DNA of 64,000 nt, taken from the NCBI GenBank assembly GCA_963810095.1, contig CAWEMM010000008.1, positions 64,001-128,000 on the forward strand, in the 5' to 3' direction. This document shows positions 51,657-59,144 of the stretch, piece by piece. A program made the position numbers and the translations under genes. The notes under the pieces were generated by a model. That model did no database searches, was not told where the DNA came from, and was given only the letters and a program-made list of their open reading frames with translations. How positions within the stretch are numbered: the stretch's first letter is position 1; every line of letters begins with the position of its first letter. Origin of the DNA: an uncultured Chloroflexia bacterium. Its GTDB lineage: Bacteria > Chloroflexota > Anaerolineae > CG2-30-64-16.

Positions 51657-53165
51657 ATGACGACCATGAGCGTAACGGGCAAGGCCACTATGCCTCGGGC
51701 TTCAGCCGAGTACTTCGAACGGGTGGCGGGCGAGTGGGACAGCCTGCGCAGTGGCTACTTCGGGGAGGCCGTGCGAGACGCGGCGATTGCGCGGTCATAC
51801 CTGCGGCCAGAGATGGTCGTGGCCGACATCGGCTCGGGCACCGGGTTCATGGCAGCAGGGCTCGCGCCACTGGTCGCCAAGGTCTACGCGGTCGATGGCT
51901 CGGAGGCGATGCTCGAGGTGGCGCGCGAGAAGCTGGCGAGCTTCGGTAATGTAGAGCTGCAACTGGCCGATGGCGCGACGCTGCCGTTTGACGACGCGGC
52001 GCTGGATGCGGTCTTCGCGAACATGTACCTGCACCACTGCCCCGATCCACAAGCAGCTATCACCGAGATGGTGCGGGTGCTCAAGCCCGGCGGCCGCCTG
52101 GTGATCACGGACATGGACCAGCATGAGCACACCTGGCTGCGCGACGAAATGGCGGACGTCTGGCTGGGCTTCGCGCGGCAGGACCTGCGAGCGTGGTTCC
52201 GGACGGCGGGATTAGTGAACATCATCGTCGACCGCACCGGCGAGACCTGCAGTTCAAAGTCGACGAGCTGTGCAGGGGAAGGCATGGCGGATATCAGCAT
52301 CTTCGTTGCTACCGGCAGCCGGCGGGTGAGCGGTGCAAAGGACGCGGTGCAGGAGAATTACGGCGCGCTGGCGGTCAACGGGGGGTGCTGTGGCTCGACC
52401 TCATCGCAGAGCAGCTGCTGCTCGACGTCGGACAGCGGCTCGCCAGCGAGCGGCTCGCCAGCGAGCAATTGCTGTTCTCCCGCTTCGAACGCTATGGAAC
52501 TGGTCGAAGCCGGAGACCCGGACCTGGTCCTGTGGGAGACGGGGTACACCGCCGAGCAGATCAGCCTGGTGCCCGCCGAGGCGGTGAATCTCTCGCTAGG
52601 GTGCGGCAATCCGACGGCGATGGCATCGTTGAAGCCGGGCGAGACGGTACTGGATATCGGGAGTGGCGCGGGGATCGACGCCTTCTATGCAGCCAAGCGT
52701 GTTGGACCTGAAGGGCATGTGATTGGACTGGACATGACGCCGGCCATGATCGAGCGGGCGGAGCGATCCGCAGAGGAAGCGGGGCTGACGCAGGTCGAGT
52801 TTCGGCTCGGCCAGGCGGAAGAGATGCCGGTCGAGGATGGAACGGTTGACGTGATCCTGTCCAACTGCGTCATCAACCTCGCTGAGGACAAAGGCCGGGT
52901 CTTTGAAGAGGCGCACCGGGTACTAAAGTCGGGCGGGCGGTTGAGCATCAGCGACATGGTCACCGCCGGGCCGCTGCCGATGAGCCTTCGGAGCGATCCT
53001 GAGATGTGGGCGGGGTGTATCAATGGCGCCCTGCCCGAACGGGAGTATCTGGACCTGGTGCGGCAGGCCGGGTTTGTCGATGTGGTTGGGACGCGGAGCT
53101 TGAGCGGGGGCGAGTTGGAGGGTATCGAGGTGTACAGCCTGGGGGTCTCGGGGAGGAAGGGATAA
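51657..53165 (+). CDS. arsM: arsenite S-adenosylmethionine methyltransferase with an extra N-terminal methyltransferase domain
   Basis: C-terminal SLGCGNP, DIGSGAG, SNCVINL and WAGCI; N-terminal DIGSGTG and NMYLHH; Cys-rich linker. Confidence 0.9.
   Translation: MTTMSVTGKATMPRASAEYFERVAGEWDSLRSGYFGEAVRDAAIARSYLRPEMVVADIGSGTGFMAAGLAPLVAKVYAVDGSEAMLEVAREKLASFGNVELQLADGATLPFDDAALDAVFANMYLHHCPDPQAAITEMVRVLKPGGRLVITDMDQHEHTWLRDEMADVWLGFARQDLRAWFRTAGLVNIIVDRTGETCSSKSTSCAGEGMADISIFVATGSRRVSGAKDAVQENYGALAVNGGCCGSTSSQSSCCSTSDSGSPASGSPASNCCSPASNAMELVEAGDPDLVLWETGYTAEQISLVPAEAVNLSLGCGNPTAMASLKPGETVLDIGSGAGIDAFYAAKRVGPEGHVIGLDMTPAMIERAERSAEEAGLTQVEFRLGQAEEMPVEDGTVDVILSNCVINLAEDKGRVFEEAHRVLKSGGRLSISDMVTAGPLPMSLRSDPEMWAGCINGALPEREYLDLVRQAGFVDVVGTRSLSGGELEGIEVYSLGVSGRKG
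52434..52466 (+). repeat. 15-bp in-frame tandem duplication (SGSPA x2)
   Basis: AGCGGCTCGCCAGCG repeated twice in the ArsM linker. Confidence 0.8.
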
Positions 53166-53352
53166 AGCGAGCGTTTCCCCGAGCGGCCGATCCTGCTCGT
53201 AACGACAAAGCGGGCGCCCGTCCTGATGACTGACTGCCCGTTGTTGCCCAAACTCATTGTCAGCACACAACTGGCGCGGCAGAGGGATTGACCCGCGCTA
53301 GTCGTAGTGCTATGATTTGCACAGGCGTAGGCTAACGCTGAAAGGAGATGGC

Positions 53353-53571
53353 ATGATGAAACGTCTTCAGAAAGCGATGCGGCCGGGCTACATTGAGGAC
53401 ACGCTGCAGGCGTGGGAGGACATGCGGGCCGAGGTCCTGCATGAGATCCAGGATGGCGGGCCGGTGCGGGAAGAACGGGTCGAGGCGGCCAGCGATATCG
53501 CGGCACATGTATTCCCGTGGGTGCTCGCCGAGCCGCAATCCGCTCGTCCAAGTCATGCTCACCGAAGGTAG
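53353..53571 (+). CDS. hypothetical protein
   Basis: AAGGAG RBS; no recognisable motif. Confidence 0.35.
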   Translation: MMKRLQKAMRPGYIEDTLQAWEDMRAEVLHEIQDGGPVREERVEAASDIAAHVFPWVLAEPQSARPSHAHRR

Positions 53572-53624
53572 CTAGATCAAGCACGGGGGCCAGTGCAGGT
53601 CTGACCAGGCGCACAACCGTATAA

Positions 53625-53673
53625 GGGGATGAGGCTCCCCGGGGTTATAGACCCAGAACGTCGCAAGACTGAT

Positions 53674-53682
<9 letters not shown>
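53625..53682 (+). ncRNA. fluoride (crcB-motif) riboswitch 1
   Basis: GGGGATGAGGCTCCCC...AAC GTC-GCAA-GAC TGATAGCCTCTAC with the GAGGC/GCCTC pseudoknot; upstream of eno...crcB. Confidence 0.9.
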
Positions 53683-55033
<1,351 letters not shown>

Positions 55034-55039
55034 GTGCCC

Positions 55040-55660
55040 ATGACGCGCTTCGTCCTGGTTCGGCACGGTCAGACGGAGTGGAACCGGGTCGAACGGTTCC
55101 GCGGACGGGCCGATGTGCCGTTGAACGACGCCGGGCTGGCGCAGGCGGAGGCGACCGGGCGGCGGGTGGCCGAGGAATGGCAGCCCGCCGCCGTGTACGC
55201 CAGTCCGCTTAGCCGGGCATACGTGACGGCGGAAGCGATTAGCGTACGCTGCGGCCTGCCGGTGGCGCCGTTGGCCGGCGTGATCGATATCGATTACGGG
55301 GAGTGGCAGGGACTGACGCCCGAGGAGGTCGCCGCCCGCTGGCCAGACCTGCTGCACGCCTGGTATACCGCGCCGCAGACGGTGCAGGTCCCCGGCGGTG
55401 AGTCGCTGGCGGGACTGCGCGAGCGGGCCATGCGGTCTCTTTGTGAGCTGGTGGACCGGCACCGTGACGAGACAGTCGCGGTCGTGAGCCACACGGTGGT
55501 CAACCGGGTGATCCTGTTGGGCATCCTCGGGCTGGGCAATGAACGGTTTTGGCGGCTGCGGCAGGACAACTGCGCAATCAATGTGTTCGACGCGGACGCC
55601 AGCGATTTCACGCTGGTGACACTAAACGATACCAGCCATCTGCGCTGCGCTGAGAAATGA
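55040..55660 (+). CDS. histidine phosphatase (GpmB/CobC-like)
   Basis: RHGQT, SPLSRA, GES and VSH. Confidence 0.9.
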   Translation: MTRFVLVRHGQTEWNRVERFRGRADVPLNDAGLAQAEATGRRVAEEWQPAAVYASPLSRAYVTAEAISVRCGLPVAPLAGVIDIDYGEWQGLTPEEVAARWPDLLHAWYTAPQTVQVPGGESLAGLRERAMRSLCELVDRHRDETVAVVSHTVVNRVILLGILGLGNERFWRLRQDNCAINVFDADASDFTLVTLNDTSHLRCAEK

Positions 55661-55682: not shown

Positions 55683-56234
55683 GTGACCGTGAATAACTTA
55701 TGGCTTGAGCTGCGCATGGGGCCGAAAGCGCCTGATATCGTATATGCCATCGTCGAGTCGCCCAAGGGCCAGCGGAACAAGACGGAGTATAACATCAACA
55801 GTGGTGCGCTCGTGTTGAGCCGCACGCTCGCCTCGTCGCTGCACTACCCGGGCGACTATGGGCTCATCCCGCAGACCTTCTTCGAAGATGGTGAGCCCAT
55901 GGACATCCTGACCATGACCGGCGAGCCGACTTTCCCCGGCTGCGTCATCCAGGCGCGCCCCGTGGGCATTCTGCGACTGATGGACGCCGGCCATCACGAC
56001 GACAAGGTGCTGGCGGTGGCTGCCACGGACCCACTCTTCGCCGAGTACCAGGCGCTGAAGGACATCCCCCCTCACTTCCTGCGCGAGGTGCAGCACTTCT
56101 TCGAGACGTACAAAGACCTGGAGGGCGGCAAGCGCGCGCAGGCGATGGGGTGGGAGGACGCGGCGGCGGCCAAGGAGGCCATCCTGCGCGCCCACCAGGT
56201 GTTCTTGGAGCGTTTCAGTCTGAAGGGCCTGTAG
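55683..56234 (+). CDS. ppa: family I inorganic pyrophosphatase (variant motif)
   Basis: YPGDYGLIPQT, DGEPMD, DDKV and FFETYKDLE. Confidence 0.9.
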   Translation: MTVNNLWLELRMGPKAPDIVYAIVESPKGQRNKTEYNINSGALVLSRTLASSLHYPGDYGLIPQTFFEDGEPMDILTMTGEPTFPGCVIQARPVGILRLMDAGHHDDKVLAVAATDPLFAEYQALKDIPPHFLREVQHFFETYKDLEGGKRAQAMGWEDAAAAKEAILRAHQVFLERFSLKGL

Positions 56235-56322: not shown

Positions 56323-56697
56323 ATGACGAGGTTCCTGTTGATTGGCCTGGGCGGCATGGTGGGCGCGAATGTGCGCTACTGGCTGCAGCAATGGGCTGCC
56401 AACCGCTGGGGTGCGGCGTTTCCCTATGGGACGTTGATCATCAATGTGAGCGGGAGTTTCATCCTCGGTTTCTTCATCGTATTGGTCACCGACCGGCTCG
56501 CGGTCTCGCCCAACTGGCGTTACCTGATTGCGGTCGGGCTGTTAGGCGGCTACACGACCTTTTCGTCGTTCACGGTCGAAACGCTTACGCTGGCCGGGAG
56601 CGGGCGCCTGCTGCCCGCGTTGTTGTATCTGGGCGGCAATGTGGGGCTTGGCCTCATCTTCGCCTATCTTGGCATGGCACTGGCACGGGCGCTTTAG
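56323..56697 (+). CDS. crcB: fluoride channel Fluc/CrcB
   Basis: GANVRY, GTLIINVSGSF and GLLGGYTTFSSF. Confidence 0.95.
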   Translation: MTRFLLIGLGGMVGANVRYWLQQWAANRWGAAFPYGTLIINVSGSFILGFFIVLVTDRLAVSPNWRYLIAVGLLGGYTTFSSFTVETLTLAGSGRLLPALLYLGGNVGLGLIFAYLGMALARAL

Positions 56698-56749: not shown

Positions 56750-58026
56750 ATGGAAATCGTCGGGACTGCCAAGAAAGTGACGGTATACATCGGCGAGAGC
56801 GACCGCTGGGCCGGTAAGCCGTTGTACATGGCGATCTTGGAGGTGCTCAAGGCGGCCGACTGCGCGGGGGCAACAGTAACGCGAGGCGTCGCAGGTTTCG
56901 GCGCGCACAGCCGCATCCGGACCGCAACCATCGTCGACCTGTCGCCCGACCTGCCCCTCATCGTGGAGTGGGTCGACGACCCGGGGCGGGTCGAGCGTGT
57001 CATGCCGAAGCTGATCGAGATGGTCGCCGAAGGCATGATCACCTGCTCGGAGGTCGAGGTGCATGACTTACGGGCATCGCGAGCTGCGCCGGCTGCGGGC
57101 CTCGGCGCCGGTGCATGACTTGATGAGTCGCGAGGTCCGTTCTGTGCGGCCAGACACGAGCGTGGCGGATGCCGTAGAGATGCTGATCGGCAAGGCCTAT
57201 AAGGCGCTCCCCGTCGTCGACGATGAGCGCCGCGTGGTCGGGATCCTCACGGACGGCGACGTGCTGCGGCGATTGGGACTCCCGGCTGCTGGCGTGCAGT
57301 CGGCACTGACGCGCGCGGAGCTCGGCCGGGAGCTCGAGGCGCTGCGCCACAGCGGGCAGACGGTCAAGGATATCATGGTGAGCCCGGTGGTAACGACCAC
57401 GGAGGATGCGCCAATCGCCCAGGCCGTCAAAGTGATGACACAGCGGGGCATCAAGCGGCTGCTGGTCGTGGATCGGGACGGCCGGCTCATCGGCGTGGTC
57501 AGCCGGGTCGACGTGCTCCGTGCGTTAGCTCAGCCGGCCGTGGCGGAGGCCCCCCAAGCCGAGGTGCGGCCGGGGCACCACGTCCAGGTACGCGACGTGA
57601 TGGTGACGGAAGTGCCAAAGGTGCACGTCGATGCTGGGCTCAACAAAGTCGTGGACCTGCTGGTCAGCTCGGCCGAGCGCCGCATCGTGGTGGTGGATAC
57701 GGATGAACGGGTACTGGGCATCATCACGGACGGCGATCTGATCAAGCGCGCCAGCGGGACCGAACGCAGCGGGTTGCTGGGCGCCCTGAGCCGCCGGCTT
57801 AGCAGTGCAGAGGGAGTCAACCTTGCCGCTCGGACCGCGGGCGAGGTGATGACGGCTAACCCCGTCACGGTGACACCCGAAACCCGCCTGTTGGATGCCC
57901 TGCAATTGCTCTTGCGCGCACAAGGTCAAGCGTTTGCCTGTCGTGGACGACACGGGGCGGCTCGTGGGTCTCGTCGGTCGGGGCGAGATACTGCAGGCGC
58001 TCGCTTCCGAGCTGCCTGAGGAGTGA
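56750..58026 (+). CDS. DUF190 (PII-like) domain fused to four CBS domains (frameshifts near 57060 and 57918)
   Basis: YIGESD..AGATVTRGVAGFG..DLPLIVEWVD followed by four CBS repeats. Confidence 0.8.
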
Positions 58027-58027
58027 C

Positions 58028-58471
58028 GTGCTCAACACGGCGCAGCGCGCGGCGATCACGATCGGCCTGCGCGCCTTCGAGATGCACTTGCACGAGATCG
58101 CGCGCTGGCTGCGAGGCGCACCGGATGCCGGCGTTCTGTTTTGGGAGCACCTTGATTTCAGCGACGAGGTGCGCATACAGGCCGAGGAGCAAGTTGCGGC
58201 TGCGCTTGCCCTGGTCGCGGAGCTGGCCCAGCGTTTTGAACTGGAACGGACCCCAATCGACCTGGGGGCGAAGATCACGGGCATGATGAGCGTCGACTGG
58301 GCCGACCTGGTGGACCTGCAGGCGAGCAAACTGCGGCGCTACGGCGGGGTAGCGGCTGAATTGAGTGGTTTGCTGGACGCCGATGTCGAACGACTCGCGG
58401 ACACGGCGAAGGAGCTGGCAAAGCTCAGAGGGGCTCCGAGCGGACACGGGGCGGCAGAAGTAGATGGCTGA
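58028..58471 (+). CDS. hypothetical protein
   Basis: In-operon ORF; WADL..L....LRRYG.V motif. Confidence 0.6.
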   Translation: MLNTAQRAAITIGLRAFEMHLHEIARWLRGAPDAGVLFWEHLDFSDEVRIQAEEQVAAALALVAELAQRFELERTPIDLGAKITGMMSVDWADLVDLQASKLRRYGGVAAELSGLLDADVERLADTAKELAKLRGAPSGHGAAEVDG

Positions 58472-59144
58472 GCAGGACACGCTATTCCACGAAATCTTGG
58501 ACGCGCTCAAGGCGGGTGGCTGCCCGATATGCCGGCTGGGACACCGTGCGCGCGACGCGCTACATCGACACGCTCAACTACGAGGGCGTCAACGATCCGG
58601 GCCTGCGCGAGAGCCTCCGCAAGTCGCGCGGGCTCTGCAACCGGCATGCGTGGGAATGGTCGCATGTGCGCGGCAGCCCGCTGGGTGTTGCCATCGTTTA
58701 CCAGAACCTGGTCCGGGACCTGGCCGAGGTGGTCGCGAACGGCAAGGCTCGCTACCAGAGCAAGGCCATGGCCGTCGAGGAGTCGGGGGGCCGCTGGCTC
58801 CTGCGGCACGCTGTCCAGCCTGCGTGGCCGAAGACGATGCAGGCGACCGTTATGCGACGACGCTGCTAGAAGTACCTCGAAGGCCGGAGATCGACGAGGT
58901 GTACGTCAGATCGGGCGGACTGTGTCTGCTACACTTACGGGTGGCCGTCAACTTAGCGGACGTCGGGCAGATCACGAAACTGGCGAACTGGCAGGCGGCC
59001 GTGTATCGCGGGCTGGACGAGCAGCTCGGCGAGTTCATCCGCAAGCACGACTACCGGTTCGCGGGCGAGCCGATGGAGGCAGAGAAAGACTCGTGGACGC
59101 GCGCCGTGGCGGCAATCGCGGGCCAGGAGGAAGACGTGCGTTAG
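58464..59144 (+). CDS. DUF6062-like Cys/His protein (internal frameshifts)
   Basis: CPIC, GLCNRH, CPAC, GLCLLH and FIRKHDYRF. Confidence 0.7.
   Translation: MAEQDTLFHEILDALKAGGCPICRLGHRARDALHRHAQLRGRQRSGPAREPPQVARALQPACVGMVACARQPAGCCHRLPEPGPGPGRGGRERQGSLPEQGHGRRGVGGPLAPAARCPACVAEDDAGDRYATTLLEVPRRPEIDEVYVRSGGLCLLHLRVAVNLADVGQITKLANWQAAVYRGLDEQLGEFIRKHDYRFAGEPMEAEKDSWTRAVAAIAGQEEDVR

Follow-up and report, generated by a model that had tools for sequence, protein, structure and literature searches.

The 64,000-nt stretch of an uncultured Chloroflexota genome analyzed here, referred to below as the window, contains six closely packed genes behind a putative fluoride riboswitch. They code for an enolase, a histidine phosphatase, an inorganic pyrophosphatase (PPase), the fluoride channel CrcB, a DUF190 protein and a CBS-domain protein. 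The PPase is one of two paralogs in the genome. It differs from canonical family-I enzymes in three active-site residues whose change is conserved in its clade, among them Glu (Glu71) in place of the second Asp of the DGDPxD motif, and this replacement recurs in many lineages. The safe part of our interpretation is that the gene encodes a predicted fluoride-inducible auxiliary PPase in an operon that would combine export with spare enzymes. For the fuller reading, in which this fluoride-induced auxiliary PPase also owes fluoride tolerance to Glu71, the chances seem to us about even. Fluoride induction of this operon and enzymatic activity of the product are what we infer from the sequence, and reduced fluoride sensitivity from the reported kinetics of the yeast variant D117E.

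Fluoride riboswitch and operon structure

The features of the locus, all on the (+) strand, are as follows.

53288..53316 (+): weak sigma-70-like promoter match, TTGACC-17-TATGAT, possibly for a small ORF 5' of the riboswitch
53616..53688 (+): candidate fluoride riboswitch aptamer (RF01734-like, 26.7 bits) with a 13-nt insert between P1 and P2
53671..53722 (+): intrinsic terminator followed by a U-rich tract (MFE fold -46 kcal/mol, z -3.1)
53720..55033 (+): second enolase of the genome (Enolase_N and Enolase_C domains)
55034..55660 (+): histidine phosphatase, branch 1, phosphoglycerate-mutase type (PF00300, 208 bits)
55683..56234 (+): auxiliary family-I inorganic pyrophosphatase with Glu71, Thr34 and Ser46 (PF00719, alignments)
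56323..56697 (+): CrcB/Fluc fluoride channel (PF02537, 98.9 bits; ORF from 56299, ATG at 56323)
56750..57118 (+): DUF190 (PII-like) protein (PF02641, 121.9 bits)
57063..58019 (+): protein with four CBS domains (PF00571, 4 stretches)

No RNA family was found in the window at the Rfam gathering scores. The RF01734 match has an E-value of 3.6e-4 in 8 kb and lies below the gathering score of 34 bits, a loss that we attribute to the 13-nt insert. The conserved P1, P2 and pseudoknot cores and a competing expression platform are present, as judged from the cmscan alignment, the fold and a comparison with the family-level relative G176. The window aptamer aligns core for core, terminator included, with both riboswitches of G176 (39.3 and 27.4 bits), and the cores common to the three are AGG.GATGAGGCTC.CC and CTGAT.GCCTCTAC. 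The terminator stem GAUAGCCUCUACCAG / CUGGUAGAGGCUAU is followed by UUUCUUU; its 5' arm is the 3' (pseudoknot) strand of the aptamer, and the fold employs AGCCUCUAC. This is the usual layout of a fluoride ON switch, of which the terminator at 53671..53722 is the predicted expression platform. The insert, the overlapping terminator stem and the alignment with G176 thus support the sub-gathering match as a likely riboswitch. The covariance model R1, built from 13 riboswitches with that of the window left out, missed it at E <= 1, so that variants with an insert escape R1 and a negative given by this model alone carries little weight; the key linkage controls described below used Rfam at E <= 0.1.

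The PPase ORF starts 2 kb 3' of the riboswitch and terminator (53616-53722), and crcB lies on the same strand 2.6 kb 3' of the riboswitch, a fluoride-related gene downstream as is typical of RF01734. The intergenic gaps are 0-90 nt, and the operon is predicted from this gene layout. The placement of the PPase in a riboswitch operon with CrcB, claimed in an earlier note made from the sequence, is thus borne out by the layout and the RF01734 match. Translation of the enolase probably begins at the GTG at 53750, preceded by AGGAGG. This enolase is 72% identical to the other one of the genome, on contig C2 (G000:C2:16398-17258, L291), the differences including SGETVD versus SGETGD near the C-terminus. 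The CBS protein could start at an in-frame ATG at 57123, directly past the DUF190 stop. Two more same-strand ORFs close behind the CBS gene (58028-59144; 147 aa without a family and 226 aa with DUF6062) may share the transcript.

The promoter match is not evidence by itself, because one site was found versus 0.8 expected from shuffles. Between this sole promoter-like match and the riboswitch lies a 72-aa ORF (53353-53571) with a good AAGGAG site, for which no Pfam family was found. Directly 5' of the operon, a 502-aa protein (51657-53165) has two SAM-methyltransferase domains with a Cys-rich linker (CCGS..CCS..CC) between them and may be a metalloid methyltransferase.

Among the closest known systems is the operon of Enterobacter cloacae FRM, which has been studied by experiment (ppaC-uspA-eno-gpmA-crcB-orf5249; PMC5533749, as excerpted). 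Its content resembles that of the window, with genes for a PPase, an enolase, a phosphoglycerate-mutase-type protein and the fluoride exporter CrcB behind one fluoride riboswitch. Its logic is described there as export plus extra copies of fluoride-inhibited enzymes. The gene order differs, the window has DUF190 and CBS genes in place of uspA, and the E. cloacae PPase belongs to family II (Mn-dependent), whereas the window has a family-I PPase whose active site is altered.

The pyrophosphatase and its altered residues

The PPase ORF (183 aa) begins with GTG; a second GTG at 55689, behind GAGG, fits better to the N-termini of the homologs P0001 and P0003. The product matches the family-I profile PF00719 over the whole domain (170.8 bits versus a cut-off of 23.5; residues 22-172 on profile positions 1-150 of 153). 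Its best solved relatives are the Pyrococcus and Thermococcus enzymes 1ude and 3i98 (E-values 7e-54 and 2.4e-51), which have DGDPFD where the window PPase has DGEPMD. The letters are gat-ggt-gag-ccc-atg-gac at 55887-55904, with GAG at 55893-55895, a departure from the D-G-D-P-x-D signature, in which Asp is third. Aligned to the canonical copy of its own genome and to the two solved enzymes, the protein further has NKTEY for NKYEY and VLSRT for VLDRV. These substitutions had all been read from the sequence earlier, and the window letters and the alignments agree with that reading. The other metal- and PPi-binding residues are all kept (E25, K33, E35, R47, Y59, D69, D74, D101, D106, K108, Y143 and K144), which we take to be E20, K29, E31, R43, Y55, D65, D70, D97, D102, K104, Y141 and K142 of the E. 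coli enzyme. In the same way Glu71, Thr34 and Ser46 presumably correspond to E. coli Asp67, Tyr30 and Asp42, and the E. coli numbering used below, including that of Glu31, is assigned likewise.

In the yeast variant D117E the pKa of the nucleophile is reportedly raised. Pohjanjoki et al. in 2001 reportedly saw the largest effect on fluoride binding with this variant, and its Glu carboxylate is said to displace the bridging water (Pohjanjoki 2001/Tuominen 1998). Residues 67-155 of the window PPase align to chain residues 113-203 of the structure of this variant (PDB 117e), placing Glu71 opposite yeast residue 117 if the first residues are ungapped. As excerpted, PMC11210485 has the nucleophilic water activated and held by Asp117 together with two metals, which upholds the claim that it is the Asp associated with this water that has changed. 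The two proteins thus share an Asp-to-Glu change at the residue holding the nucleophilic water. Yeast D117E, however, is an engineered eukaryotic point mutant, whereas the window enzyme is a natural bacterial paralog, conserved in its clade and with further changes at the Tyr30 and Asp42 positions.

The GAG codon, for which a base-calling error had been named as a possible cause, is genuine. A 151-nt contig from run X4, which is independent, covers 55752-55902 with no other letters, and a 456-nt contig from run X1, possibly the source sample itself, spans 55730-56185 and has no listed difference at this codon; runs X2 and X7 had no coverage of it. All six closest database homologs (71-93% identical) have Glu at position 67, one of them as DDEEPLD; they also have Thr, Met or Leu at the Tyr30 position, and at the Asp42 position Lys or Asn. 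Since these six share all three changes, a sequencing error is not the cause. The other 114 of the best 120 homologs keep Asp67 (110 with DGDPxD and 4 with other motif changes). An artefact, whether a base-calling error or a decaying pseudogene, thus has practically no chance. Nothing was found in its favor, although the assembly is a draft, 88.5% complete. As far as these data go, it is ruled out by the intact reading frame, the identical independent contig, the Glu of the six homologs and that of an ortholog in a sister species (G165).

The genome (6.13 Mb in 16 contigs) has two PF00719 genes. The other PPase (L001:1444-1986) is 69% identical to the window PPase and canonical, with NKYEY, LDR and DGDPLD. 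Of 14 other genomes that have a Glu-type enzyme, 13 have a canonical Asp-type PPase as well, the sole exception being a 1.6-Mb Nitrososphaerota genome, and a riboswitch nearby makes no difference to this second-copy pattern.

A search of 41 relatives gave a Glu-type ortholog in the window genome (G000) and in G165 alone, that is, in 2 of the 8 genus members searched (completeness 75-90%); 25 other loci are Asp-type and three failed to match the regular expression. The G165 ortholog is the nearest, 85% identical, with NKTE, LNR and DGEP. It is flanked by genes for a solute-binding ABC transporter and a GNAT acetyltransferase, and no riboswitch, crcB or enolase was found within 15 kb. In G176, tandem units consist of riboswitch, PPase, riboswitch and crcB (L282, G176:C2:1068374-1071913); this riboswitch-linked PPase keeps Asp67 and has Val at the Glu31 position.

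Distribution of Glu-type pyrophosphatases

The degenerate pattern YG.[IV]P.T...DGEP.D, run over one genome per species (185,579 species), gave 110 loci, 106 of which encode PPase homologs. Sixty-two of the 106 are full-type PPases with the other catalytic residues, and by record titles they come from Acidobacteriota, Actinomycetota, Chloroflexota, Myxococcota, Pseudomonadota and Nitrososphaerota. The first tree alignment had 161 rows (92 Asp, 68 Glu and 1 Asn), the Glu rows having been collected on purpose. With the three trait columns removed from both trees, 17 (FastTree, 161 rows) and 19 (IQ-TREE quick, 123 rows) Asp/Glu changes are needed, which suggests about 17-19 independent origins of Glu. 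GAA and GAG alternate inside the Glu clades (11 GAG and 6 GAA in the Rubrobacteraceae-type clade), which argues that Glu is maintained and not transient.

The Asp42 position is occupied by another residue in 17 of the 68 Glu rows versus 5 of the 92 Asp rows. When seven fluoride-linked lineages are compared with their nearest canonical copies, it is the second most often changed site, altered in four of the seven and 98% conserved in canonical rows; since these lineages were picked by Glu, the coupling is a lead and not a test.

The Rubrobacteraceae-type Glu PPases (L008, L018, L027, L045, L048, L056, L057, L066, L069, L085 and L089) have Glu, Glu, Asn/Thr and Phe at the Asp97, Asp102, Lys104 and Tyr141 positions, so that their active site is remodelled more deeply than that of the window PPase. 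A Na+/H+ exchanger and a zinc alcohol dehydrogenase are encoded close to several of these genes. Val or Ala at the Glu31 position occurs also in the Glu-type enzymes of L007, L077, L081 and L009.

Linkage to fluoride loci

Twenty Glu-type loci were scanned at the Rfam gathering level and nine of them have riboswitches; R1, applied to all loci, added three more. The riboswitch is upstream on the same strand in 10 of the 62 (L006, L016, L020, L023, L049, L051, L077, L097, L105 and L112). L081 is head-to-head with a riboswitch-crcB-crcB-enolase unit, and in L096 crcB is the next gene on the 3' side. These 12 of 62 fluoride-linked Glu PPases are a lower bound because the loci were uncentred 8-kb blocks. 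At least six Glu lineages besides that of the window stand at fluoride loci. At the other 50 of the 62 Glu-type loci neither riboswitch nor crcB was detected, and six of them refetched with flanks were likewise negative. The first batch of neighboring genes, 144 of 221 called ORFs scanned against Pfam, gave no fluoride-related context at the riboswitch-less Glu loci; the GC-frame gene caller missed some real genes, such as the crcB of L020. The unpublished genomes G038 and G063 were counted in the linkage tallies only.

For the canonical paralogs in the same genomes, a riboswitch within 1.5 kb was found in 0 of 14 (Rfam at E <= 0.1; R1). In the Chloroflexota relatives it accompanies 1 of 28 canonical copies (0 of 27 plus the Asp-type L282). 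An even sample of 151 Acidobacteriota genomes, which provides a background rate only, has riboswitches in 49 genomes and PPases in 59 (71 matches). The pairing of the two was found in the seed genome G001 alone, and at most 1 of 69 canonical PPases stands at a fluoride locus; in G129 the riboswitch is 3.8 kb off and in convergent orientation.

A metagenome scan blind to residue 67 (riboswitch 3' core, 190-250 nt, YG.[IV]P.T...DG[D/E]P) gave 113 contigs, with Asp in 112 (GAT in 76, GAC in 36) and Glu in one (L224). At 90%, 70% and 60% identity they group into 59, 14 and 6 clusters, respectively. A few peat and wetland projects, mostly Acidobacteriota, dominate the sample. The scan covers only first-gene PPases downstream of a single core variant (GATGRCYYCTRC); that of the window (GATAGCC...) would escape it. 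The residue pattern is fully canonical in 84 of the 113, except for Ala instead of Pro at window position 113. R1 gave 192 matches across the 100 loci searched, and in the four inspected by eye (L146, L151, L165 and L224) its match overlaps the pattern site. Like the window, the peat Acidobacteriota loci (L146-L258) have an extra family-I PPase behind a fluoride riboswitch, which it follows directly there; unlike it, 112 of the 113 keep Asp67 and the whole canonical active site.

The Glu-type L049 has about 90% identity to 15 of the Asp-bearing contigs, and the Glu-type L105 to nine. In the tree, Glu and Asp rows are intermixed within the riboswitch-linked Acidobacteriaceae clade, and L105 is sister to a riboswitch-linked Asp row. 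Independent pairs gave 11 contrasts (starred branches) or 14 (all branches), and no coupling of Glu to riboswitch linkage was found in these 11-14 phylogenetically independent Asp/Glu contrasts (median p = 1): linkage went with Glu in about two, against it in about one, and did not differ in about eight.

The enrichment of riboswitch-linked PPases in DGEP, which the earlier note had proposed as a check, is therefore mostly absent, as judged from the 112 Asp enzymes, the contrasts and the unlinked ortholog in G165. What stands of it is that at least 12 of the 62 Glu types are at fluoride loci versus 0 of 14, 1 of 28 and at most 1 of 69 canonical copies. Since 112 of the 113 adjacent PPases have Asp, the ordinary enzyme is the usual cargo of these riboswitches; because nearly all other riboswitch-linked copies keep Asp, the Asp-to-Glu change may help here and is not a general trick. 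Target replacement is at most lineage-specific, and an extra ordinary enzyme is the rule, a common solution that tempers the claim of Glu-based tolerance.

Proposed function and alternative explanations

Family-I PPases are textbook fluoride-sensitive enzymes. According to PMC11857102, as excerpted, 0.5 mM fluoride strongly inhibits them, and yeast becomes fluoride tolerant when IPP1 is swapped for a family-II enzyme, while overexpression of the fluoride-sensitive IPP1 is also sufficient. The fluoride-insensitive family-II PPase of Streptococcus mutans and membrane PPases, in the same source, share with our proposal the idea that a little insensitive PPase protects better than much sensitive enzyme; their folds are unrelated to family I. 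PPase genes are among those most often linked to fluoride riboswitches, and PMC11139923 explains this by overexpression or phosphate homeostasis. In such literature excerpts, riboswitch-linked PPase copies have so far been put down to simple overproduction. No paper or enzymology on natural Glu-type or fluoride-tolerant family-I PPases was found in a literature search conducted mostly outside subscription journals.

We propose that fluoride would stabilize the riboswitch and prevent the terminator, the operon being transcribed only then. A second, catalytically competent family-I PPase would keep PPi hydrolysis going while the housekeeping enzyme is inhibited, and the second enolase, the phosphoglycerate-mutase-type phosphatase, CrcB, the DUF190 protein and the CBS protein would be supplied together with it. 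The enzyme has Glu in place of the second Asp of DGDPxD, a residue whose role is to position the metal-bridging nucleophilic water displaced by fluoride. Together, the Glu, Tyr-to-Thr and Asp-to-Ser changes most likely weaken fluoride binding and slow catalysis, and Glu71 itself probably lowers fluoride binding at a cost in rate. Slower catalysis would explain why a Glu enzyme serves as an additional copy instead of being the sole PPase. Fluoride tolerance from Glu71 is chemically reasonable and fits the second-copy rule, the recurrence of Glu and its maintenance.

The operon may instead provide a plain dosage back-up, more PPase just as more enolase, with the Glu tolerated as a near-neutral change that brings no useful gain in tolerance. 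We regard this as rather unlikely, although several findings are in line with it: the canonical state of 112 of the 113 riboswitch-adjacent PPases, the independent contrasts without coupling and the G165 ortholog outside a fluoride locus. The Asp-type PPase behind a riboswitch in the family-level relative G176 also counts against the fuller reading. Published models, as excerpted, likewise invoke extra copies or overexpression (PMC5533749, PMC11139923), and overexpressed fluoride-sensitive IPP1 is enough in yeast (PMC11857102). Against it, Glu is held through synonymous turnover in several clades, and in the window clade it is accompanied by two more changes, both at positions where canonical rows are 98-100% conserved. 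The residue is in contact with the water whose place fluoride takes (PMC11210485, as excerpted), so that equal fluoride sensitivity would be surprising.

Still less probable, in our judgment, is that Glu types are specialized for another role (pH optimum, metal cofactor, Ca-PPi resistance or a different phosphoanhydride) and that one of them was merely placed in a fluoride operon. Such a role would suit the raised pKa of the nucleophile reported for yeast D117E, the status of Glu types as second copies nearly everywhere and the further active-site changes of some, such as Glu/Glu/Asn at the Asp97/Asp102/Lys104 positions in Rubrobacteraceae. It would also suit the 50 of 62 Glu loci without a detected fluoride element and, among the 144 of 221 ORFs scanned, unrelated neighbors such as polA in Actinomadura and the Na+/H+ exchangers in Rubrobacteraceae. 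The window gene, however, lies between enolase and crcB behind a fluoride riboswitch and keeps all other PPi-binding residues, and at least six other Glu lineages are found at fluoride loci.

The reading of the window PPase as a fluoride-tolerant auxiliary enzyme can be extended, as a tentative idea that we hold with less than even confidence, to Glu67 family-I PPases as a repeatedly evolved fluoride-insensitive class. In such enzymes the carboxylate would fill the site of the bridging water, loss of Asp42 would often compensate, and the slower back-ups would have been wired to riboswitches in several phyla. If so, the Chloroflexota operon would represent true target replacement added to efflux. 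Natural Glu67 enzymes, if fluoride-tolerant, would be a natural experiment on the nucleophile site of a classic metalloenzyme and would offer a one-residue route to fluoride-hardened PPi metabolism. Such a route could be useful in strains that must survive the fluoride released by organofluorine breakdown, which are needed according to PMC11139923.

Divergent DGEP domains and multi-riboswitch contigs

The remaining 44 loci of the Glu-pattern scan (within L003-L112) encode short or fused divergent PPase-like domains, in which DGEP is the normal motif; examples are L024:5892-6335, L029:4058-4531 and L099:4342-5874. They are without the Lys29/Glu31/Arg43 region, match only positions ~28-94 of PF00719 and, weakly, PF18823 (InPase), and were found in Salinibacteraceae, Clostridia, Chloroflexota and others. 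The search for fluoride riboswitches next to these 44 loci gave nothing but a non-significant R1 match in L060 (14.8 bits).

Several contigs carry more than one riboswitch. In a Kofleriaceae genome, a PP2C-type protein phosphatase gene (L112:110-949) lies between the riboswitch and the Glu-type PPase, and three riboswitches on this 5.5-kb contig drive PP2C-PPase, crcB and DUF190-CBS, respectively. Five contigs of at most 15 kb from peat and wetland metagenomes (L191, L195, L159, L161 and L229) have 5-6 fluoride riboswitch matches each, and the genome G001 has 11 fluoride riboswitches; together they look like dense fluoride-response islands in Acidobacteriota.
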